A DNA stretch of 24,411 nt from a virus (lineage: Duplodnaviria; Caudoviricetes), in the IMG/VR virus record IMGVR_UViG_3300032292_001230, positions 1-24,411 of that record. One strand, given 5' to 3'. A model generated the notes under the pieces. The model did no database searches and had not been told where the DNA came from. It was given only the letters and a program-made list of their open reading frames with translations. Shown here one piece after another: positions 5,690-23,415 of the stretch. The number at the start of each line of letters is the position of its first letter. The first letter of the stretch is position 1. The translations under genes and the position numbers were made by a program.

Positions 5690-5745
5690 TACGTTAATTT
5701 CTTTACTAAGGCTAGAAAATAAAGCAAGCCTGCATTTTTGGCAAC

Positions 5746-6603: not shown

Positions 6604-6885
6604 ATGCCAAAGCCAAACCCTCTAAATCCGATCTGCACTCAATGTGGCAAACACACCACATTTAACTGCACGCTACCATCAGGTGCGAAGCAGTACCGAT
6701 GCCGCCGCCATACCCCTAATTACACCTGTACCGATAGCGATCGCCCAGAGGGTGGGCAATTACTGGGCGATCGCAAGCTCACACAAAAAGAGCTTACTGA
6801 AAGGTGGAAGTTAAACGATCCTGAAGGGTATCGCGCCGCCCAAAAACGCAAACAACAAAAGCGAAAAAAGCTAAAAAATAAATAA
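6604..6885 (+). CDS. Zn-ribbon protein (InsA-N-like CxxC...CxxH) with a basic C-terminal helix; putative DNA-binding regulator
   Basis: CTQC...SGAKQYRCRRH and a K/R-rich tail. Confidence 0.65.
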   Translation: MPKPNPLNPICTQCGKHTTFNCTLPSGAKQYRCRRHTPNYTCTDSDRPEGGQLLGDRKLTQKELTERWKLNDPEGYRAAQKRKQQKRKKLKNK

Positions 6886-7049
6886 TTTAAAATTATATTA
6901 GTGATATTAAAATAATTTGCCGCCCGAAACCCTTGCACCGTATACGTTCTTATAAATATCAGCAAAATAATTTAAAATTATATTTACGATGTTTTACTAA
7001 AATACGCTTTAAAAGCTATACAGCGTATACGTTTAAGCGATTTTTGCTA
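6880..7049. repeat. Degenerate 85-bp tandem duplication upstream of the ncRNA promoter
   Basis: AAATAATTTAAAATTATATT at 6880 and 6965, and CGTATACGTT at 6939 and 7024; both pairs are offset by 85. Confidence 0.75.
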
Positions 7050-7083
7050 AGGGGTTGACATACGCTGTATAGGATGCTATTAT
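7016..7083 (+). promoter_or_regulatory. Strong sigma70 promoter TTGACA-N17-TATTAT (extended -10 TG) with a 13-bp inverted-repeat operator
   Basis: TTGACA at 7055-7060, TG at 7075-7076, TATTAT at 7078-7083. CTATACAGCGTAT (7016-7028) and its reverse complement ATACGCTGTATAG (7060-7072). Confidence 0.85.
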
Positions 7084-7089
7084 TTAGAA

Positions 7090-7357
7090 AGTTAAGAAAT
7101 TAACTGGTGCGAAACCCTAAAACAAAGCGAGGATGACGCTATACAAACCCTGTAGACCCCAGTAAAATCGGTGAGAAACCCTTATACAAACCGAGGATGA
7201 CGGTATATAAACCTCGAATGCGAGAAACCCTGAGAAACAGGATAAACAAAGCGAGGATGACGCTATACAAACCCTGTAGACCCCAGTAAAATCGGTGAGA
7301 AACCCTTATACAAACCGAGGATGACGGTATATAAACCTCGCTAACCGAGAACGGTTA
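7090..7357 (+). ncRNA. Putative ~270-nt repeat-array ncRNA built from tandem small hairpins
   Basis: No ORF in the track. Begins at the predicted TSS with hairpin AGUUAA-GAAA-UUAACU. Four A(G/C)CG-AGGAUGA-CG(C/G)U hairpins at 7126, 7190, 7250 and 7314 show a compensatory G-C/C-G swap. Ends in UAACCG-AGAA-CGGUUA at the ribozyme cut site. Confidence 0.7.
7120..7340 (+). repeat. Exact 97-bp direct repeat x2 (7120-7216 and 7244-7340), each holding two related ~27-bp subunits
   Basis: Read directly; period 124 bp. Subunit consensus CAAA(G/C)CGAGGATGACG(C/G)TATA(C/T)AAACC. Confidence 0.95.
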
Positions 7358-7411
7358 GCCCCTTAGACAGTAACCTCCACGCGGTTAGGGGTGGGTAACG
7401 CTAATACTGTT
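7358..7411 (+). ncRNA. Minimal HDV-like self-cleaving ribozyme (P4 nearly absent)
   Basis: P1 GCCCCU(U) 7358-7364 / (U)AGGGGU 7386-7392 with G1.U wobble. P2 ACAGUA 7367-7372 / UACUGU 7405-7410. P3 ACC/GGU with L3 UCCACGC. P1.1 CC 7377-7378 / GG 7393-7394. Vestigial P4 GUAAC. J4/2 GCUAA with candidate catalytic C7401. Confidence 0.85.
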
Positions 7412-9827: not shown

Positions 9828-10646
9828 TTATTTAGTTATAATTCGGTTTTTTTGCGATTCTCTTTTTTGCCTTATATTATTAAATCTTTTGATTTCTTCA
9901 GCAGCGCACAAACATTTATTCATTTGCTGTAACGGATACCACACAATACTATACCGATAACCATCTGAGTTTTTAGTGATAGGCGAAACACCATGAAGTG
10001 TTGTAGCGCCTGAAAATGCAATAAATGTATTATCTGCCATTTCTAATGCAACATCGTACTGGGGTAATATTAAATGACCGCCGCTAGTTTTCTTTTTGAA
10101 GCAGATCATCACGCTCCAAGAATCCTTGAAATTACCAGAATCAAAATGATATTGCAATGGATTATCTTTATTTACAATCCCACTGGTAAACGCACCGCCG
10201 ATTAAAATCCATTCATTAAGAACGGTATCGCTTATATTTTTAACTTGATTTTTGTATTGATTAGGATTATAAGTTTTTAAAATTTCAGAAGCAAATAAAG
10301 CGCCGTTAGAGAAAGAAGTAAAACTTTTAGGCTGATATCTTAATAATCCTGTAGCGCGACAAATATCATTTTGCAGCCTAACCGTATTCCTAGGCGCGAA
10401 TCCAAAGATAACCGATTGAGTTTTCATCCCATCAGTTCTAGCCCCTTTGTCATATTTAGTTGTTAGACAAGCATTTCTAAGATTATTTGTAGAATCATCC
10501 AAAGAGCCATAAACAGCGATTAAATCGCCATTATTGTCTACTAACTTAGTATTTTCTGTAATCAAATTACTGTAATCAGAATCTTTAGGAGTTAGCTTTA
10601 AAAAATTTTTTTTATCCTTTTGGATTTTGACAATAATATTATTCAT
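9828..10646 (-). CDS. TET/JBP-like 2-oxoglutarate Fe(II) dioxygenase (DNA base modification)
   Basis: HFD (HxD) in NPLQYHFDSGN, distal His in LHGVSPI and 2OG-binding Arg in RYSIVWY. Lies between the ParB-like gene and terminase. Confidence 0.8.
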   Translation of the reverse strand: MNNIIVKIQKDKKNFLKLTPKDSDYSNLITENTKLVDNNGDLIAVYGSLDDSTNNLRNACLTTKYDKGARTDGMKTQSVIFGFAPRNTVRLQNDICRATGLLRYQPKSFTSFSNGALFASEILKTYNPNQYKNQVKNISDTVLNEWILIGGAFTSGIVNKDNPLQYHFDSGNFKDSWSVMICFKKKTSGGHLILPQYDVALEMADNTFIAFSGATTLHGVSPITKNSDGYRYSIVWYPLQQMNKCLCAAEEIKRFNNIRQKRESQKNRIITK

Positions 10647-11262
10647 AATTTTCTGCTAAAGCTTTTAAAGCCTCTGCATTATTTTCTACTTTAAATCGAT
10701 TAATTAACAACTCAAAAAAGCCTAAAACAAGATCATGATCTTCGATTGAATAAGTAAGTACAAATTGCCTAACAGAACTATTTAAGTATTGGCTCTCATA
10801 TTCTTTAGGGGTAAAATCTCTTTCGGTATTAGTTAAAGTCTCACTCTCGTTCTCATCCCCTATCAACTCATCATCATCATACATATCGGAAATATCAATC
10901 TCATCCGATATTTCTGCCAATAATTCATAATCAGCATCATAGTTAATTTCAGATATCCGATTGTCTGCAATGCCTAGCCTAACTGCTTTGGGGTGATTAG
11001 CATCTGGAATATCATCACGCACAATAATGACAGGGCGATCGCCTGTAGTATGTACCATGATTGGCTCTGCATCTTCACCAAAGCGATTAGTCGCAACCTC
11101 TAACCGTGCCGATCCTGCGAACGTTTCCCCATTAGCAGCAGTGGTGATTGCACCGATCCAGCCTTCTTTTTCAACGATATTGTTAAGGGTCTCCATACCG
11201 CGCTTTTTGTGGCGGTTTACGTTGCGAGTTTGCTTTTTAAAATCTGATAACTTTTTTGCCAT
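10639..11262 (-). CDS. ParB/Srx N-terminal-domain protein
   Basis: RNVNRH...GWIGAI...FAGSARLE...LGIADNRISE pattern, followed by an acidic linker. Common upstream of phage terS. Confidence 0.75.
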   Translation of the reverse strand: MAKKLSDFKKQTRNVNRHKKRGMETLNNIVEKEGWIGAITTAANGETFAGSARLEVATNRFGEDAEPIMVHTTGDRPVIIVRDDIPDANHPKAVRLGIADNRISEINYDADYELLAEISDEIDISDMYDDDELIGDENESETLTNTERDFTPKEYESQYLNSSVRQFVLTYSIEDHDLVLGFFELLINRFKVENNAEALKALAENYE

Positions 11263-11334: not shown

Positions 11335-11637
11335 ATGTCTTATGGACTCGAAAATTATGATCCAAAACATCACTACCGAGCCATTAAATACCAGCGTAAA
11401 GCCGACTTTGATCATTGCTGTGCATATTGTGGCGATCGCCCTCAATTCTTGACTATTGACCATGTAATACCGCGCAGTCAAGAGGGAACAAATGAGCTTA
11501 ACAACCTATTGCCAGCCTGTAAGCCATGCAATGAAAGTAAAGGCTCTAAATCCTTGGCTAATTGGTACACGCACCGTAATTATCGATATACGGCGGCGCG
11601 ATGGGAAAAGATTAAGGCAGTTTTGCAACATAGCTAA
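11335..11637 (+). CDS. HNH endonuclease (Zn-binding, McrA-like)
   Basis: CAYC...TIDHVIPRSQEGTNELNNLLPACKPCNESK. Confidence 0.92.
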   Translation: MSYGLENYDPKHHYRAIKYQRKADFDHCCAYCGDRPQFLTIDHVIPRSQEGTNELNNLLPACKPCNESKGSKSLANWYTHRNYRYTAARWEKIKAVLQHS

Positions 11638-12268
11638 TTAAATCAAGAAGCCTACTGCCTCTTTTTGTAGCAATCACAGCCTCACTAGCAGCATATTCAC
11701 TGATGTATTTAGCTAATTTATCGCTTCGATAGTTGCCAGAATTAATCTCAGTCTTACTAAATCCCATAGCCATAAGCTCTTCATACCTTGTGAGTAAATG
11801 GACAAATGTAGAGAGGTAAATATACAGCGTGTCTAGCTCAAATTGAACTGGGAAGTAATCACGGCTATTGGCTTCTAATGCCCACGGCAATATGTGCTTT
11901 TGCGCTGATTCGGCAATGCAGATTGTAAACGGCGCCGCGGGGGGATTGATAAGCCATTCACGCAATAAAACGCGGGTAGGTAGCTCAGTCACTACTTGCA
12001 AAGTATCTTTTCCCTCGGTAATTGTGTCACCAAATTTAGGATAGGAATTATCGCCATTAAGTAGCCATGACCAGTTACGGGAATAAATAGCGCTGTACTT
12101 GCCCTTGGTTTCATTCCAATAAAAAGCCCTTAACGGGATACACCATGCACAGCGATCGCATAGATGCTTAGAATCAGGACATCTAGCGGCGTTGTGCGAT
12201 GTAAAGGTATCCTTCAAGGCTAATGGCTTATTAGCGTTAGGGGCGGCGCAAAGGTAGCAGTTAGGCAT
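11612..12268 (-). CDS. csf1: Type IV CRISPR-associated Csf1 (Cas8-like large subunit)
   Basis: N-terminal Zn finger CYLC...CDRC and the WLINPPAAPF...IAESAQKH motif; last gene of the operon. Start revised to ATG 12268, overlapping the cysH-like stop by 8 nt. Confidence 0.8.
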   Translation of the reverse strand: MPNCYLCAAPNANKPLALKDTFTSHNAARCPDSKHLCDRCAWCIPLRAFYWNETKGKYSAIYSRNWSWLLNGDNSYPKFGDTITEGKDTLQVVTELPTRVLLREWLINPPAAPFTICIAESAQKHILPWALEANSRDYFPVQFELDTLYIYLSTFVHLLTRYEELMAMGFSKTEINSGNYRSDKLAKYISEYAASEAVIATKRGSRLLDLISYVAKLP

Positions 12269-13010
12269 AATTTTTAACCTCTGGAAATAGCGCTGCAAAT
12301 TCAAAATAAATCTTGGGGTAATTCTTTCTTAGATGTGCCATACGCCCCCAATTAGAAAGCGCTGTATCTATAGGGCATCCATTACGAAAAGTCATACGCC
12401 CCTCAACATCGTAAATCGTGGCATAGGGTAGCTTTTGCCAATCTATGTATTGCCAAATATCTTCGGTTTCCCAAAAGCCAATTGGTGAGCAAATGACGCT
12501 TCCATCTTTTTTCGTGTAAAGCAATCCATTAGATCGCAAATACTCTTTACGACCTCTTGACTCTTGCCTTAGTCCCCATGCGTACCCTTTGACGTTGTGC
12601 ATTTCAGCCCATTCATTCAATGGATAAAGTAAAAGTTCATGGCATTGTTTTTTGTCAAGAGCATTAAATTGTCCGTCAAAACTCATGCCTAATTTGCGGT
12701 AAAGCTGCATCAATCCAAGCGGTGGACATAGCTCTATAATGTTCCATTTGAGTTCATCTCGCAGATAGTAAAGCAACTCTATGCAATCATCCCATTCGGC
12801 TAAATGCCCTTGATTTACCCATAGAAATGGACAATCTGGGAAAACCTCTTTAATTAAATGCGCCATTACTAGCGAGTCTTTACCGCCCGAAATAGAGCCG
12901 TAAACTTGATAGTCGCAAAGTTCTAACCATTCTTTGATTAGAGCGATCGCCTTATCTTTTTTGCGCTGTAACCAAACAGCATTTAATCCACTGCCAAAAG
13001 TTATCGACAT
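12261..13010 (-). CDS. cysH: PAPS-reductase-family (CysH-like) protein, the hallmark accessory gene of type IV-B
   Basis: PP-loop SISGGKDS, WGLRQES and SPIGFWETEDIWQYI. Embedded between csf3 and csf1. Confidence 0.88.
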   Translation of the reverse strand: MSITFGSGLNAVWLQRKKDKAIALIKEWLELCDYQVYGSISGGKDSLVMAHLIKEVFPDCPFLWVNQGHLAEWDDCIELLYYLRDELKWNIIELCPPLGLMQLYRKLGMSFDGQFNALDKKQCHELLLYPLNEWAEMHNVKGYAWGLRQESRGRKEYLRSNGLLYTKKDGSVICSPIGFWETEDIWQYIDWQKLPYATIYDVEGRMTFRNGCPIDTALSNWGRMAHLRKNYPKIYFEFAALFPEVKNYA

Positions 13011-13684
13011 ACATTATCCGTAGGCATATAGCACATAGTTTTATTAGCAGCTAACCATGTAGGAGGTCTCCATCCCCAGTTCATCATATTGATAGCTTGA
13101 GGCTGTGGAATCATATTGATCGGCATAGGACGTGCTAAATGTTCACCTCTCCATAAGTGCCAATCATGTTCAAAGGGTAGTACCTCCCATTTATGCACCT
13201 GTCCGCACCCTTGCGATCGCTTCTTACCAAGATTAGTAACATTTAGAATCAGTTCACTAATCTTGTCAGCATCACCAATACAAAACCAGTGTATAGTCTG
13301 CATTTCTCGATCATATCTTGGCAGATCATAGGCTTTAAAATGCCCTTCACTGCCATTGACTTTTGCGCGTTTCTTACCCCATTCAAGATGATGCTCTTGA
13401 TAATCCCATCGCTTACGGAATTTTGAAATTTGCTGATGATTCTCAATGTAATGAGGTGAACTTACCGCCCAGTACCATTGACCATTCAGCATCTTTCGGG
13501 CGATCGGCATTTGCTCAAATAGGATAGGCAAGTTTTTAATGATGCTTGCTTCTGTGGGATTAGGCTCGATTAATCCTAAAGAGTCTAGCAATTGATACTC
13601 AATAAGAGCATCAAGGCTAGGACTCCAATCATCATAGGCAACAAGCGGCGTTGCCATGTGTGCGATTATTTGAAGATTATCCAT
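13001..13684 (-). CDS. csf3: Type IV Csf3 (Cas5-family RAMP)
   Basis: LQIIAHMATPL...LDALI, G-rich loop LGKKRSQGCGQV, RPMP and WRPPTW. Start revised to ATG 13684, which has a GAAGGAG RBS. Confidence 0.85.
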   Translation of the reverse strand: MDNLQIIAHMATPLVAYDDWSPSLDALIEYQLLDSLGLIEPNPTEASIIKNLPILFEQMPIARKMLNGQWYWAVSSPHYIENHQQISKFRKRWDYQEHHLEWGKKRAKVNGSEGHFKAYDLPRYDREMQTIHWFCIGDADKISELILNVTNLGKKRSQGCGQVHKWEVLPFEHDWHLWRGEHLARPMPINMIPQPQAINMMNWGWRPPTWLAANKTMCYMPTDNVCR

Positions 13685-14237
13685 TCGGTAGATCTCCTTC
13701 AATACAACTCAGGTAAAAATCAAACGATTCTGAATTATCGTATATATTCCAATCGCTCCATTTGCTTATGTAATTAACAACGTTTGAATTTAATTCAAAC
13801 AATTCTCTCCCGAATGTTTTGACTTTTTGGTTTCGCAAAAAAGCATGAATATAAATTTCAGCTTGTCTGTCGCAAAAAGCAAATCCGATAACAATAGGAT
13901 TTGATACCCATCTATTACATTCAGAAAACCTTTGATAAAAATGCTTTAAAGAACCAGCAGATCCTATTTTTACAGCATTTTCAGATACTTGGATAAAGTA
14001 CAAAACATCTTTTGCGCCACATCGAATCAACTCATTAATTCCTTGTAAATCAATATCTCGTCTAGATAAAATACCTTTGGATATATTTACGGCTTTAACG
14101 TCATTGCTTAAATAATCTCTAATAAAATCGCGCAACAAAGGGCTTGCGTTAGTCCCATCATTTTTTGCCTTTCTACAAAAACAATCCCATAGATCGGCAT
14201 CAATATTAAATGTAGCCATTGTTGATCTACTATCCAT
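13677..14237 (-). CDS. RHH-like DNA-binding domain fused to a GIY-YIG-like (T5orf172/MUG113-type) domain, inserted in the cas operon
   Basis: TFNIDADLWDCFCRKAKNDGTNASPLLRDFIRDYL (RHH-like), then VLYFIQ...VKIGSA...QRF...AEIYIH...RELFEL. Confidence 0.7.
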   Translation of the reverse strand: MDSRSTMATFNIDADLWDCFCRKAKNDGTNASPLLRDFIRDYLSNDVKAVNISKGILSRRDIDLQGINELIRCGAKDVLYFIQVSENAVKIGSAGSLKHFYQRFSECNRWVSNPIVIGFAFCDRQAEIYIHAFLRNQKVKTFGRELFELNSNVVNYISKWSDWNIYDNSESFDFYLSCIEGDLPNG

Positions 14238-15408
14238 TCAACAAACTCCTAATATCACTCTTAGAATCTGCCAAAAACCCTTTGTAATCTTCGAGATATT
14301 CTTTATACCTTGCATGAGATTCAGAAGCGCGGTCGCTAAGCTTTTGAGCGTGAGGTGTAATTGTCATAAACTCACCGCGATCGCCGTCCGCAGTTTCAAA
14401 CCAAAACTGCATGGAGCATAGTCCGCAACCCGTACCAGATTGACCGCCTAAGTATGGCGATTCAGCGAACTTGAGTAATGCATCAGCAATAAAACCTTCT
14501 TCGATTCTGGTAATATTTGCGCTCCAATAGGAGTACAAAGTCGCGCCCGTTTGCAGTAGCCAATTACCCATGATCATTTGTTGGCTTTTCTCTTTTTCAG
14601 GCTTCTTTTTTGGAGAATTATCAGCAACTACAAATAGATCGCTTTGTCCGATTTTTGGCTGTGGATTAGCGCCAATTAAGTGCTTTGCAAAATTAGGATC
14701 ATGAAGAGAATCGCGCCTTGTTTTCTGATTATAGGTAAGCCAATCAGAATAATATCGGAGGCGATCGCCTAAGAATGGTAGCCACTCATCAAGCAAAGCT
14801 TTGAGGTCGTACTGGGAAACCTTAGCATCAATCCCTAGCCATTGGTTTACTCGTTGCGAGTGTTGTAAATCTTTGCCATCAACAATCTGTTCTAGCGCTG
14901 AAATAACATCAAGTGGCAACGCGGGGGGGAATTGTCGATAAATATACTCAGCGCTTTCTACACAAACCAGATAGGCATCACCAACAGCGATCCGACCATG
15001 TACCATCTGAGCATCAGATACACCAAATAAACCTTTAGGCTTGGCAGTTCCTAGTACTGAGAGGCATGGCAAAAGTTGCCTAATCTTTTTATCTAAATCC
15101 AAATCGTTACCAGTACCGCCATCGATCGCGCCGCCACAAAATAAAGCATGATGCATCGTTGGGGATACTTGCACACCAATCTGAGATAAGAAAGAATCAA
15201 TACCGCACCGCCTTAAAATTCGGTTGCGTAATGAGTTGCCAGAAAGTGTAAATACTTCCGAGGGATTACCCTCTAAATCTGTCACCTTCATCGTGCGTAA
15301 ATTCGTTTGATTGCCTACGCTTTCACTGATGTGAGACATTGGCTGTAGTAGCGTAATCTGCAAATGTAGCTTGATATTGTGGCGATCGTGTGGATTGTAA
15401 TTAAGCAT
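14230..15408 (-). CDS. csf2: Type IV Csf2 (Cas7-family backbone RAMP)
   Basis: ITLLQPMSH, LSGNSLRNRILRR, LFCGG, LLPCLSVLG, QQMI and the C-terminal G-loop LGGQSGTGCG. Confidence 0.9.
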   Translation of the reverse strand: MLNYNPHDRHNIKLHLQITLLQPMSHISESVGNQTNLRTMKVTDLEGNPSEVFTLSGNSLRNRILRRCGIDSFLSQIGVQVSPTMHHALFCGGAIDGGTGNDLDLDKKIRQLLPCLSVLGTAKPKGLFGVSDAQMVHGRIAVGDAYLVCVESAEYIYRQFPPALPLDVISALEQIVDGKDLQHSQRVNQWLGIDAKVSQYDLKALLDEWLPFLGDRLRYYSDWLTYNQKTRRDSLHDPNFAKHLIGANPQPKIGQSDLFVVADNSPKKKPEKEKSQQMIMGNWLLQTGATLYSYWSANITRIEEGFIADALLKFAESPYLGGQSGTGCGLCSMQFWFETADGDRGEFMTITPHAQKLSDRASESHARYKEYLEDYKGFLADSKSDIRSLLNG

Positions 15409-15922
15409 TGTTAGCCTCTACATCTAGAGTATTTTCTGGTTCATCTGGAGTATTCAAAGCGCGATCGCTTTCAAAGCGAACACGGCAAAAAGTAGTAATC
15501 ACATGGGGTTTGGATTTGCACATATTCAGGATATGGCGATCGCTTATTCCTTCAGGCTTAAGGGAGTTGAGAATATCTTGCCAGCCTAGCCACTGCAAAT
15601 GTTGATCGCTGTCCATTTGCTGAATGTCTCCCATACTGCCATCGGCATTTACAAAAGCCCGTAAAATCACCTGTTTTGGCGCGATTATGCGCGTCCATTC
15701 TTTAGGATTGAGGTGTGCAACGATTAGCTTTTTAGCTAAATTTTCGATGTAATCATCAATATTTCGAGAAGGAATAGCAGCATTTTGGATGCTGCTTTGA
15801 AAGTATTCCCATGTTTTGAGTCCCATCGCTGGGCTTTTAGCTTTATCCCTACAGCGAAAAACCCAGTAACTAAGCGCACTGGCGATCGCTGTAACTTTAT
15901 CTTCAGTTTCTATGCCATACAT
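15401..15922 (-). CDS. cas11: Probable Cas11-like small subunit of the type IV-B complex
   Basis: 173-aa helical protein translationally coupled to csf2 (8-nt overlap). Assigned mainly by position. Confidence 0.6.
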   Translation of the reverse strand: MYGIETEDKVTAIASALSYWVFRCRDKAKSPAMGLKTWEYFQSSIQNAAIPSRNIDDYIENLAKKLIVAHLNPKEWTRIIAPKQVILRAFVNADGSMGDIQQMDSDQHLQWLGWQDILNSLKPEGISDRHILNMCKSKPHVITTFCRVRFESDRALNTPDEPENTLDVEANNA

Positions 15923-15994
15923 AAATATTTGCGTACATCTACGATAGATTTATTATATTGCCTAATATCCCTATTTGCTTTATTTTAAGCACCT

Positions 15995-16768
15995 ATGGCA
16001 CTGCAAACAATCACCCTAACTTATGGCGGTTTATCTGTCGTTTTTCGCAATTGGAAAAGCGCGGATTTGCCACGTTCGCGCAAAGTATTTGTAAATGAAA
16101 GTAGTTATGCAACCAGTGGCAATTTAATCAAGTCTGGATCAAGTTTCGAGTTGCCTTATTTGTGGACAATAGCCGCCGATCTTTACCAAACGGATTACGA
16201 CAAAGTGCAGATGATTTGGGAGCTTTTGGATTATGCTCGCAGGAACCAACGCGCCCAAATTGCAATCGATGTCAATGTAACCAGTAATATTTTTTCGTCA
16301 ACAGCGCACCCGTACCAGAATGTTGATGTTGTGACCTTATCCACTACAGGTACATTACCCGCGCCGCTTGTCTCTACTCGCGATTACTGGATAGTTAATC
16401 GCACCACTAACAGCTATCAATTATCAGAAACACCAAATGGATCGCCCATTGACATCACAACCACAGGAAGTAATTCCGTACTCAATACTCAGCTATTTGT
16501 TAGGCTCGATGATGAATCAGAAGAGATTGCAGAGGCAGGCAAAACGACATTAACAAAAACGAGATCGGCTGTTGCAGGAACTACCCCAAGAGAGGCAAAT
16601 GGCGGCGTTTATTACTACGCAAGATTTTTAGCTGATTGGGTTGCGCCGCCCGAATTTGGTAAAGCTTATAGTTCGGTGCGATATAGCCCTAATAATTCAG
16701 TTCGCGCCGATCAAGTATTGGTTAGATCGGTCGGATTAGTGCTGCAAGATACTGGGGTGAAGATATGA
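15995..16768 (+). CDS. Virion/tail structural protein (distal-tail-like, with an inserted beta domain)
   Basis: First gene of a coupled operon. Internal STAHPY...TGTLPAPL...YWIV...YQLS..PNGSPIDITTTG module seen in phage structural proteins. Confidence 0.55.
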   Translation: MALQTITLTYGGLSVVFRNWKSADLPRSRKVFVNESSYATSGNLIKSGSSFELPYLWTIAADLYQTDYDKVQMIWELLDYARRNQRAQIAIDVNVTSNIFSSTAHPYQNVDVVTLSTTGTLPAPLVSTRDYWIVNRTTNSYQLSETPNGSPIDITTTGSNSVLNTQLFVRLDDESEEIAEAGKTTLTKTRSAVAGTTPREANGGVYYYARFLADWVAPPEFGKAYSSVRYSPNNSVRADQVLVRSVGLVLQDTGVKI

Positions 16769-20556: not shown

Positions 20557-20970
20557 ATGGCAGAACCAACAGCAACACCCACATCGACAATAAATCCTGC
20601 TGTTAATGAGCTAAATCAGCAATCTCAAATTCAGCAGCCTCAATCGCCTCCATTATCAATATCGCCAGAATTGATATCTAGTGGCGGATATGTCCTTGGA
20701 ATTACTACTTTAGTATTGGTATTTTTTCGCAATTATCTCAACAATGCCAATAAGCGAGCGCAAATTGATAACGAATCTGCACAAACCACAAGCCAAACAC
20801 TTTTTAAGCAGCAAGCAGATTTAGTTAACGATATGCGCCAAGAAAGAGAGAGTATGAGAAAGGAAAGGGAAAGAGTGATACACGCCTTAGAATGCAATAC
20901 GATCGCGATGCAACAGTTCACAGTCACACTTCACAAGGTTGAATTGATTTTAGAAAAGTTTGCCGCTTAA
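20557..20970 (+). CDS. Single-TM coiled-coil protein, possibly holin-like
   Basis: TM segment GGYVLGITTLVLVFF followed by a coiled coil; at the end of the tail operon. Confidence 0.5.
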   Translation: MAEPTATPTSTINPAVNELNQQSQIQQPQSPPLSISPELISSGGYVLGITTLVLVFFRNYLNNANKRAQIDNESAQTTSQTLFKQQADLVNDMRQERESMRKERERVIHALECNTIAMQQFTVTLHKVELILEKFAA

Positions 20971-21398
20971 CGCACTAGCTCCATTGTATCGCCAGAGTAC
21001 TCAACAAAACCAAGCTTCAAATATAGTCCTTTCGCTTGGCTAGTCATCGCTCTTATAGCCTTGCAGTGAGGTACATCGGCACAAAGTTGGAGAGTGATAT
21101 TTGTAGCGATCGCCTGTCCGCGATAATCAGGATGGCAAGCAATATCGGTTAATACCGCCAGATGAACACCATCGCCTATTATTCTGCCAAATCCGACAAT
21201 CTCAACACCATCAAAGGCGATGTAACTAGCGATGGAATTTAGTACGCAAGTTTTGATTTGTGCTGTAGTGCGATCGCTTGACCAGTGGGTAGCGCATTTC
21301 AGAAAATTCAATATTCGGCAATAAATCAAAGCGTCATCAGGGAGCGAAACTTTATTTACTTTTTGAAAGGCGATCGCAGGACGGGTTAGGGTTTGCAT
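20967..21398 (-). CDS. GNAT family N-acetyltransferase
   Basis: IVGFGRIIGDG...LTDIACHPDYRGQAIA...LYLKLGF. Start revised to ATG 21398. Confidence 0.88.
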   Translation of the reverse strand: MQTLTRPAIAFQKVNKVSLPDDALIYCRILNFLKCATHWSSDRTTAQIKTCVLNSIASYIAFDGVEIVGFGRIIGDGVHLAVLTDIACHPDYRGQAIATNITLQLCADVPHCKAIRAMTSQAKGLYLKLGFVEYSGDTMELVR

Positions 21399-21399
21399 T

Positions 21400-21894
21400 T
21401 TATTTCTTCTCAAATACAAAATAGATGTTGGTAAAAACAAAACATAGAGCGCCATAAATTGGCTGATATTTAATGCTCACGCTTGCCATATATCCGAATA
21501 GGAAAGCGAGTATTATTGAGGCGATCGCAATAGTTTTGCGCCCTATAACTTTGCTCAACAGGCTCAACAGATTTAACAAAGTCAGCGTCACAAACCAGAA
21601 TAAACACGATGGACGCAACAGCAACCAATTGATAAAGAATCTAATGAAATGATTGTCGTGTTTTAGGAATATCAATCGTGCAGCACCATGAACAAAGTTA
21701 TGAACTCCTTTGCTTAGAGGCACAACATCACGCAAAAAGATTTCATGCTCAAGGTTTTTGTAAGTCATGTGGTGAGCATCGTTTGACTTCAGGAATGGTA
21801 ATACACAGCATCGGTTAAGCATTACATTACGAAATGATTTAGATTTTTGCCGCCATCTGTCGGAGCCAAGGTAGGTTAGATATCGGTTACTCAT
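21400..21894 (-). CDS. HNH-like domain with C-terminal transmembrane helices
   Basis: YLGSDRWRQK...HHMTYKNL.HE...DVVPLSKGVHNFVH, followed by hydrophobic segments. Confidence 0.65.
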   Translation of the reverse strand: MSNRYLTYLGSDRWRQKSKSFRNVMLNRCCVLPFLKSNDAHHMTYKNLEHEIFLRDVVPLSKGVHNFVHGAARLIFLKHDNHFIRFFINWLLLRPSCLFWFVTLTLLNLLSLLSKVIGRKTIAIASIILAFLFGYMASVSIKYQPIYGALCFVFTNIYFVFEKK

Positions 21895-23051
21895 TGTTTT
21901 TTAAATCTCCCTAAAACTGTAGTTGTGTAATCTTTGATTGAAGGATAATCACCCGCCCCATACTTTTGAGGTTTAGGATTATCGAATAAATTTGGATCGC
22001 CTGAGTACCAAATAGAGGCAACTTTGCGGATCTGCTCATCTTCATTAGCTGATGATTTTGCGGTAAGTTCTAATCCCTCTTTGAGTTTGCAATCAATAAT
22101 TTTGATTTGCTTCTCTTTGGATTTCAAGAACTCATCTTCAGTAAGCTCTTGACCGATGCATTGCTTACTCCATGATTTGATATTCTCTGGCATAACTTGA
22201 CCATAGCCAAGAGCGTTGCTATCTGGATTGACGGCTTTAGAATCATGGTTAGATTCTTGACTCGCGATCGCATTACGCAACCTCTCAACTATTGGCTTTG
22301 TTGATTGTGGTTTTTTACCTTGGAGTAGCCACATTAAATAACCTCTAGGCGGATCTATCCATTCTCCCTTTACCTTTACACCGTAATGTAAATGTGGAGC
22401 CGTAGAAGCGCCGCTATTACCAGATTTAGCGATCATCGCACCGACAGGGTGACGACCTGAATAGCACTCACTTAAATGGAATAAGGCGATCTCGGTATCA
22501 GGCAATAGAGGGGATTGAATATAAGCCGCCATACCTTCAAGCGGGTTATTTGGATTCCAAGGGCAAGCAACATCAACATAACCATCGTGGAAATTACTTG
22601 CAGATTTTTCTTCACCGATCGCATATAGCGGCGTTCCAATAGGAGTATTAATATCTACACCTTTATGATCGCTACTGCATGAAGGGCAAGGCTTCTCACG
22701 CTTACCAAATACGCTTGTAACTTCCCACTCAAGAACCTTATCGCCAAGTTTAAAAGTCGAATTAAAATCTTTATCCGTTGCCAACGGCTTAAAATTTTCT
22801 TCAAGCGATGACTTGTCAAAAGTGGGAAAATTTAAAGCTTGCCACGCCCAATCTTTTGCAGAATTTAAAGGTTTAATAACTACGAATGACAGCAATACGA
22901 CAGAAATAGTTACGCGACAAAAGTTACCGAGCCGATAGGCTTTCTCTTTGTTTAGCCAGTGCTGATGTCTGTAGTCGTCCGTGCAAAGTTGGATCGGCGG
23001 CTCTATTTCTGTTTGTGAGCGTGTTGGATTTCGTATCCGTACTAAAGTCAT
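21891..23051 (-). CDS. Peptidoglycan hydrolase: M23 peptidase plus lysozyme-like/lytic transglycosylase domain, with an N-terminal TM
   Basis: HKGVD (HxxxD) and PHLH (HxH) for M23; IASQES...ALGYGQVMPEN for the lysozyme-like fold. Start uncertain (ATG 23051 used). Confidence 0.85.
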   Translation of the reverse strand: MTLVRIRNPTRSQTEIEPPIQLCTDDYRHQHWLNKEKAYRLGNFCRVTISVVLLSFVVIKPLNSAKDWAWQALNFPTFDKSSLEENFKPLATDKDFNSTFKLGDKVLEWEVTSVFGKREKPCPSCSSDHKGVDINTPIGTPLYAIGEEKSASNFHDGYVDVACPWNPNNPLEGMAAYIQSPLLPDTEIALFHLSECYSGRHPVGAMIAKSGNSGASTAPHLHYGVKVKGEWIDPPRGYLMWLLQGKKPQSTKPIVERLRNAIASQESNHDSKAVNPDSNALGYGQVMPENIKSWSKQCIGQELTEDEFLKSKEKQIKIIDCKLKEGLELTAKSSANEDEQIRKVASIWYSGDPNLFDNPKPQKYGAGDYPSIKDYTTTVLGRFKKQ

Positions 23052-23415
23052 AATCCAATACCTTATCAAAACTTACAGTTAATTCTTTCCCTGCTTCCGT
23101 AAAATATTTAAAGCCCTTTGATGTTTCACAAAAAGCATTGCCAAGTAGTGTTTCAACTTGTTTTTTGTCGGTTAGCTGCCTTAATGTCCTGATTTGAGTC
23201 AGGGTTACAGGCTTGGTTTGCGATGGTTTGGTTAGGCAATCATCGGTATTACCTTCAATCAACTTTGCGAACTGTGGGGGGACAGTATTCGGGATTAATC
23301 TTTTAAAGTCGTCTACTGCCGCAAATTCCATATAGCCTGATTTGAGGCTGTCAAGGGCGATCGCTCCAATAGACAATATTAGAAATGTGTATGAAGCGAT
23401 CGCCGTTTTACGCAT
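22924..23415 (-). CDS. Hypothetical exported or membrane-anchored protein
   Basis: 163 aa with N-terminal MRK followed by a hydrophobic stretch. Confidence 0.6.
   Translation of the reverse strand: MRKTAIASYTFLILSIGAIALDSLKSGYMEFAAVDDFKRLIPNTVPPQFAKLIEGNTDDCLTKPSQTKPVTLTQIRTLRQLTDKKQVETLLGNAFCETSKGFKYFTEAGKELTVSFDKVLDYDFSTDTKSNTLTNRNRAADPTLHGRLQTSALAKQRESLSAR

Follow-up and report, generated by a model that had tools for sequence, protein, structure and literature searches.

The main finding of this work is that a viral DNA fragment of 24,411 nucleotides (IMG/VR record IMGVR_UViG_3300032292_001230, positions 1 to 24,411; Duplodnaviria, Caudoviricetes; hereafter the window) carries a genuine type IV-B CRISPR-Cas operon, confirmed by profile searches, with two features that appear to be new: a motif of the type that binds the bacterial beta sliding clamp, predicted on the thumb of the Cas7 subunit Csf2 and placed in complementary fashion on the large subunit Csf1 of relatives, and an enzyme slot whose content is swapped. 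We tentatively favor the reading that the operon encodes a clamp-tethered scaffold, which would bring an adenylating enzyme to replicating DNA in order to mark it and not to cut it. The basis of this reading is the genes, their folds, the motif with its complementary placement and the exchange in the slot. No account of a clamp motif on a Cas7 thumb or of its complementarity with Csf1 was found in a literature search that left most subscription journals and supplements outside. Nor did this search turn up papers linking type IV csf2 to cyanophages, Mom to the beta clamp, or phage DNA methyltransferases to a clamp-binding motif.

The operon spans positions 11612-15922 and contains six genes, all on the minus strand, in the order cas11, csf2, a GIY-YIG-like insert, csf3, a cysH-like gene and csf1. 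The type IV small subunit gene cas11 (15401-15922; 173 aa) matched PADLOC typeIV_Cas11 (E 1e-14), csf2 (Cas7; 14230-15408; 392 aa) was identified by PADLOC (E 3e-41), alignment, an AlphaFold2 (AF2) model and Foldseek, and csf3 (Cas5; 13001-13684; 227 aa) by PADLOC (E 2e-44) and by TIGR03116 (E 6e-16, under cut-off). The Cas8-like large subunit gene csf1 (11612-12268; 218 aa) was recognized by PADLOC Cas8/Csf1 (E 1e-23) and by alignment. Between csf3 and csf1, the cysH-like gene (12261-13010; 249 aa; PF01507) encodes a PP-loop enzyme, here called class A, and is the first gene of the exchangeable slot. The ATG start of csf3 was checked, and that of csf1 was taken from the sequence and the alignment. 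All five gene junctions overlap (by 8, 8, 8, 10 and 8 nt) and a divergent tail gene starts at 15995, 72 bp from the operon, which bears out the translational coupling and the divergence from the tail operon described in an earlier sequence-only reading of this DNA. That reading had also made its type IV-B assignment depend on whether profile or structure searches would place the proteins in the Csf families; the PADLOC type IV profiles placed Cas7, Cas5, Cas8/Csf1 and Cas11, and Foldseek agreed for Csf2.

The NCBIfam models for Csf1, Csf2 and Csf3 all matched, but under their curated cut-offs. In alignments, Csf2 has an invariant Asp44 and Csf1 four invariant Cys, as in a Zn-finger large subunit, and the alignment and AF2 model of Csf2 show a thumb hairpin with a disordered loop at residues 247-274. 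Foldseek matches of the Csf2 model were type IV Csf2 and Csm3 chains, and Csf2 profile matches were 11fs, 7jhy and 8rc2, with IV-C Cas7c first and 7JHY next. Because Foldseek ranks IV-A Csf2 chains above the IV-B structure 7JHY, the subtype call rests on gene content, namely Cas11 and a CysH-like protein, without DinG or a Cas10-like subunit. None of the marks of types IV-A, IV-C and IV-D (DinG, a Cas10-like HD subunit, RecD) was present among the window proteins scanned, and the absence of a cleavage module proposed earlier was upheld.

The predicted beta-clamp-type pentapeptide QSDLF occupies Csf2 residues 255-259 (codons at 14632-14646, minus strand), within a Lys-rich loop between the thumb strands, at the thumb tip, where the AF2 model has pLDDT<50 and disorder is predicted. 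In an alignment region that is otherwise variable, conservation of Q255 and L258 reaches 90% or more. According to the accessible parts of the literature, to which our statements on published work refer throughout, the clamp consensus is QL[S/D]LF, with positions 1, 4 and 5 mattering most (bioRxiv 10.64898/2026.05.27.728225), and clamp motifs arise at different sites among homologues (PMC4549789). Compared with Q-phi-[SD]-L-F, QSDLF keeps positions 1, 3, 4 and 5. The thumb loop was located in 159 of 177 Csf2 sequences, which gave 104 distinct loops; with patterns defined after viewing the alignment and sequences that are kin, a loose form of the motif occurred in 80 of these loops (shuffled mean 2.0, max 8) and a stricter form in 63 (shuffled 0.2, max 3). 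Among 39 loci in which both proteins are full (one locus with truncated csf1 was left out), the motif was found on Csf2 only in 21, on Csf1 only in 15, on both in two and on neither in one, corresponding to 16, 9, 2 and 1 distinct pairs. Where Csf2 is without the motif, Csf1 usually has a C-terminal tail ending in a QLSLF-type sequence; the window's own Csf1 has no such tail. On a Rhodovastum plasmid, Cas11 ends near QLELF. As a control, clamp-type motifs end 20 of the 1593 proteins in the fetched loci: 11 are Csf1 tails, one is a Csf1 helix match, five are related DNA methyltransferases and three are others. N6/N4 DNA methyltransferases ending in QLSLF were seen at L046:6663-7520, L048:6593-7966, L049:8819-9673 and L050:3854-4795, and their ends suggest a clamp-coupled methylation in these phages.

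The same motif could serve a hijack of the replisome, in which the filament sequesters clamps, or the CysH-like enzyme AMPylates a replisome or defense protein or makes a signaling nucleotide at the fork, so that host replication is slowed. The motif would be present on each Csf2 copy (six per complex in 7JHY), three of six near-complete genomes encode their own DnaN homologue, and AMPylation or second-messenger synthesis is a standing proposal for these systems (PMC13676074). However, in the 15 Csf1-only loci each complex presumably has a single copy of the motif, which speaks for tethering instead of titration. Moreover, the dnaN genes do not neighbor csf, and the DNA-modification-type genes inside the operon would be left unexplained; we consider this explanation unlikely. 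Cyanophage DnaN homologues were located at L093:8680-9795, L096:11605-12708 and L083:13353-14456.

The CysH-like protein matches PF01507 with E 8e-15 and, as the sequence-only reading stated, keeps its PP-loop (SGGKDS). The alignment has S41, G43, D45, S46, G146, R148, E150, R154 and W186 as invariant columns, so that both the PP-loop and the GxRxxES..R motifs are retained. The AF2 model (pLDDT 96) matched in Foldseek 3'-phosphoadenosine 5'-phosphosulfate (PAPS) and adenosine 5'-phosphosulfate (APS) reductases, FAD synthase and TtuA; PADLOC gave weak matches to BrxP and SspD, and the NCBIfam CysH models were all far under cut-off. No invariant Cys was found in the alignment, neither a catalytic C-terminal Cys nor an Fe-S Cys. 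Because of this lack, sulfate-reduction chemistry and the DndC-type sulfur chemistry raised in the earlier reading are unlikely. The motifs and the modeled fold would fit adenylation without sulfur transfer, and adenylation without a catalytic Cys has been proposed for CasCysH (PMC8175902).

The exchange in the slot was seen in a set of 65 csf2 loci, many of them near-duplicates. A cysH-like gene lies within 10 kb in 52 of these loci (53 genes), with 30 genes in class A (43-95% identical to that of the window), 19 in class B (mostly 23-29%) and four others; the two classes are ~25% identical to each other. Class A genes are followed by csf1 in 23 cases, by a glucosyltransferase and 2-oxoglutarate (2OG)-Fe oxygenase-like pair in two (L002 and L018, where the pair lies between cysH and csf1), and by other genes or the contig end in five, while class B genes are followed by Coq4-like genes (9), cupin genes (6), cas6 (1), csf3 (1) or the contig end (2). 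A quick tree of 41 Csf2 rows, with the four other CysH rows counted with class B, has at least 7-8 switches of class. The complete genomes G001 and G002 illustrate such a swap, with proteins 88-90% (Csf2), 77-78% (Csf1) and 27% (CysH) identical to those of the window. The slot opens precisely with the ATG that overlaps csf3. In locus L003 it is occupied by an N6/N4 DNA methyltransferase gene whose first five codons are still those of class B CysH. In G001, a relocated csf1 lies just upstream of ParB-Mom-ParB. In Cas6-bearing relatives (L067:1483-2160, L068:1492-2181) csf1 has been relocated by tens of kb and sits immediately before ParB/Mom or terminase small subunit genes, and short csf1 start remnants persist before cas6 in L012 and L016. 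In one phage (L038:3414-8665), both CysH classes occur together with three copies of csf3 and two of csf1, and a TGT-like gene comes next. A distant IV-B operon (L057:11633-12535) has a 300-aa hydrophobic membrane-like gene without family match between csf3 and cysH.

Taking the motif and the slot together, we hypothesize that the mobile cassette forms a Csf2-Cas11 filament, a step taken from the literature on another IV-B system, the Mycobacterium system, for which a filament on non-specific RNA is known (7JHY; PMC7937560). With the QSDLF thumb loop as its anchor, this filament would attach to the bacterial beta sliding clamp and, once docked, would deliver the CysH-like, ATP-adenylating enzyme to DNA that has just been replicated, where the enzyme may add a chemical mark in an adenylation-driven reaction; the mark would probably protect phage DNA from host defense. 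Modification of nucleic acid, which was one of the ideas of the earlier reading, is retained as a leading idea. A more general form, possible and more doubtful, is that the system is a domesticated CRISPR effector in which clamp docking replaces guide targeting, a scaffold riding on the replisome for interchangeable DNA-modifying cartridges, with a tag movable among Cas7, Csf1 and Cas11.

Several observations weigh against a clamp-tethered marking machine. Position 2 of the motif is Ser and not the preferred aliphatic residue. The complementarity between Csf2 and Csf1 rests on 1-3 events (origins of the Csf1-only state on the quick tree), and because the tree allows so few origins a Fisher P on the counts is no real test. 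For distant type IV Csf2, 136 representatives of 50% clusters yielded 100 loops, of which only 13 have the motif (shuffled 1.2, max 7), and the Gloeobacter and Rhodococcus plasmid systems showed none. The five motif-ending methyltransferases are one family from one phage clade. As for the slot, the methyltransferase of L003 may have arrived as a disruptive insertion, and the Coq4-like and cupin partners could equally act on small molecules. A scan of flanks (120 of 177 family representatives) found DNA-modification genes at all distances from csf, and because these phages carry them everywhere, proximity to modification genes is weak evidence. The window is wholly devoid of GGCC and CCGG (57 and 37 expected), with many 6-bp palindromes likewise absent, and the zero counts of GGCC and CCGG indicate site avoidance and not blanket protection. 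Finally, Cas6 (PF09559) is encoded in 20 of the 65 related loci, often within the operon, which points to RNA processing.

This last observation belongs to a different explanation, in which the complex performs RNA-guided, nuclease-free interference with crRNAs (CRISPR RNAs) borrowed from host arrays or co-resident arrays and processed by host or phage Cas6, blocking replication or transcription of phages or plasmids that compete with it; the clamp motif would then place the complex at forks, with CysH as the effector. Besides the Cas6 genes, the four Cascade-like subunits have all stayed intact and are conserved, and the fold of Csf2 is closest to that of the DNA-targeting type IV-A Csf2. However, neither a CRISPR array nor Cas6 was found in the window, nor in its closest complete relative (G006), there is no helicase in the operon, and crRNAs co-expressed with the Mycobacterium IV-B complex were not enriched by it (PMC7937560). 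Arrays were detected in the flanks of five loci, three of which have them right after a TnpB/Cas12-like gene, and in two of the six near-complete genomes, each beside a TnpB/Cas12f-like gene and none beside csf. The gaps after cas6 in relatives hold terminator- or promoter-like sequence and no arrays. We regard RNA-guided interference as somewhat unlikely, and for the RNA guidance suggested in the earlier reading the window offers no guide source. TnpB/Cas12f-like genes with arrays of their own were located in csf-bearing cyanophages at L080:6800-8843, L082:17190-19184 and L046:14179-18046. An apparent solo CRISPR repeat in G002 and G006 was rejected, as it lies within a coding open reading frame (ORF).

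Rfam searches of the window gave only sub-threshold, terminator-like matches. Downstream of the terminase, at 7055-7400 (plus strand), a strong sigma-70-like promoter (11/12, extended -10) leads into a ~60-nt unit present in four copies and a hairpin (fold z -2.5; no Rfam match). The sister phage L066 has at the matching place a similar promoter, 64-nt repeats and a terminator, and alleles in run X3 have fewer units or none. This element is a candidate repeat-containing phage small RNA; it was rejected as a IV-B guide RNA because L066 has it without csf and no csf locus has it.

RNA may also be involved in another manner, with the Csf filament acting as an anti-CRISPR sponge that captures crRNAs of the host or other small RNAs. 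Non-specific RNA loading of a IV-B complex (PMC7937560), a negative co-occurrence with other CRISPR systems (PMC7038947) and carriage by a phage all agree with such a role, yet a sponge has no need of an enzyme that can be swapped or of a clamp-type motif, and we find it distinctly improbable.

Comparison with described systems delimits what is particular to the window. The Csf complex of Mycobacterium sp. JS623 (PDB 7JHY; PMC7937560) likewise comprises csf1, cas11, csf2, csf3 and a cysH-like gene, has no array, Cas6, helicase or nuclease, and shares the conserved Csf2 Asp and a flexible thumb insertion, which is unresolved in the 7JHY structure. In contrast, the operon of the window is phage-borne in a cyanobacterial lineage, has the order cas11-csf2-csf3-cysH-csf1 with cysH inside the operon, encodes a Csf2 of 392 instead of 300 aa with a clamp-type thumb motif, and has an exchangeable enzyme slot. 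IV-B systems on prophages and viruses are already in print (PMC7038947; PMC10848311; bioRxiv 2023.08.02.551345); the Fuxiviridae (PMC10848311) and a Methanoperedens virus (bioRxiv 2023.08.02.551345) also carry a five-gene IV-B module but have archaeal hosts, with a mini-array in the Fuxivirus, and no mention of a clamp motif or of enzyme swapping was found in the accessible text of these reports. The CysH-like protein shares the PP-loop Rossmann-like fold of the DndC/SspD, BrxP and CysH PAPS-reductase family but has no invariant Cys and is much shorter than BrxP. Known clamp clients (polymerases, MutS, IS transposases; PMC4549789; bioRxiv 10.64898/2026.05.27.728225) also have Q-x-x-L-F in an unstructured segment at variable places, whereas here the putative motif is on a Cas7 thumb (a Csf1 tail in relatives) and has a non-aliphatic second residue. 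The function of IV-B is still called unclear (PMC13676074, September 2026; PMC12669027), and a clamp-type motif hopping between subunits, together with natural enzyme swaps on near-identical cores, makes it testable. Should our reading hold, the operon would encode a machine derived from CRISPR whose targeting depends on replication and not on RNA, and would add a new chemistry of phage DNA; otherwise the locus is one more regular IV-B member, though a new one.

The cassette is mobile. In L066 (TerL 74%, tail gene 72%), the terminase small subunit gene (TerS) and the tail gene are 46 bp apart, without csf, ParB or TET, and an empty allele is seen in run X3, where one contig connects 11615 with 15957 (shorter side 30 letters, aligned at 85% likeness). 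This joint sets the edges of the cassette, leaving outside it the HNH endonuclease gene (11335-11637, plus strand; PF01844) that converges on csf1. Csf2 is 87-97% identical in 22 viral loci of several unrelated contexts. The operon leader (15923-15957, minus strand; cassette edge near 15957) contains a -10-like hexamer and, 8 nt further on, a conserved palindromic motif of 12 nt at 15932-15943; it is preserved in four different upstream contexts and travels with cas11, and its 12-nt motif was found in 19 of 72 loci, in one copy each, before cas11. The long residence of the operon proposed in the sequence-only reading is contradicted by the empty sites and by the near-identical Csf2 in unrelated contexts. 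The HIP1 richness behind that proposal holds for the window as a whole (42 observed, 3.3 expected), but the operon is merely average (8 observed, 6.5 expected) and with 0.97 sites expected in the insert, finding none there is within chance (P 0.38); HIP1 density was rejected as a residence clock and does not date the stay of the operon.

The insert between csf2 and csf3 (13677-14237, minus strand) encodes a 186-aa protein with a DNA-binding-like N-terminal domain and a T5orf172/GIY-YIG-like domain; structure comparison reaches the naming threshold for PF10544, and the protein is 44% identical to the insert of L022. It is flanked by two copies of the 9-nt csf2/csf3 overlap. The low GC content (0.33, and 0.24 at third codon positions) and the alleles without insert in runs X2, X3 and X5 (553-nt skip) are better evidence than the absence of HIP1 that it is a foreign and probably recent arrival. 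The operon is also present without insert, ParB or TET in L004.

On the same strand, 350 bp from the operon, lie a ParB-like gene (10639-11262; PHROG ParB-like) and, upstream of the terminase, a TET/JBP dioxygenase gene (9828-10646; PF12851, E 4e-11) with intact HxD..H..R residues. From position, co-transcription of the operon with ParB-TET-terminase is plausible, and the earlier reading had raised a joint RNA-guided or DndC-like sulfur modification pathway, a possibility favored by the shared strand, the short distance and the intact TET catalytic residues. However, L004 has the operon without the pair, no TET homologue clustered among the ORFs of the 65 related loci or was present in the six near-complete genomes, the TET gene has a GC of 0.33, like a recent arrival, and in E. 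coli, ParB-dependent thymine dioxygenases function on their own (bioRxiv 2025.08.14.668559); with the CysH lacking an invariant Cys, such a pathway is highly improbable. In L004 and L066, which have no ParB/TET, a terminase small subunit type stands in place of the pair. The pair is a separate module, with the TET/JBP protein as a candidate thymine dioxygenase, and its layout, with ParB-like beside TET/JBP near the terminase and no C5 methyltransferase in the window, fits the published stand-alone thymine dioxygenase type of clade E 5mYOX (same preprint), a likeness by layout; the downstream hypermodification genes of that type are not in the window. No TET relatives were found in viral contigs, although a variant is present in run X2.

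Profile searches of the window, a phage fragment of 24 kb, recognized head, terminase, tail and lysin-like genes. The host of the phage is likely a freshwater cyanobacterium, and a Pseudanabaena-like host is suggested by the HIP1 excess and by Csf2 94% identical in Pseudanabaena metagenome-assembled genomes. No tRNA was detected in the window, and no Csf2 match was found among GenBank phages. A common promoter-like motif, with a TTGCC-type hexamer, 17 nt and TATTTT, precedes the tail operon (15958-15986, plus strand) and the head operon (5716-5744, minus strand) and is also present in L066; it is a candidate late promoter. Other observations include 45-nt repeats at the window edge (1-110), AT-rich repeats spaced 85 nt (6880-7040), and a GNAT acetyltransferase with an M23/SLT endolysin-like gene at 20967-23069.

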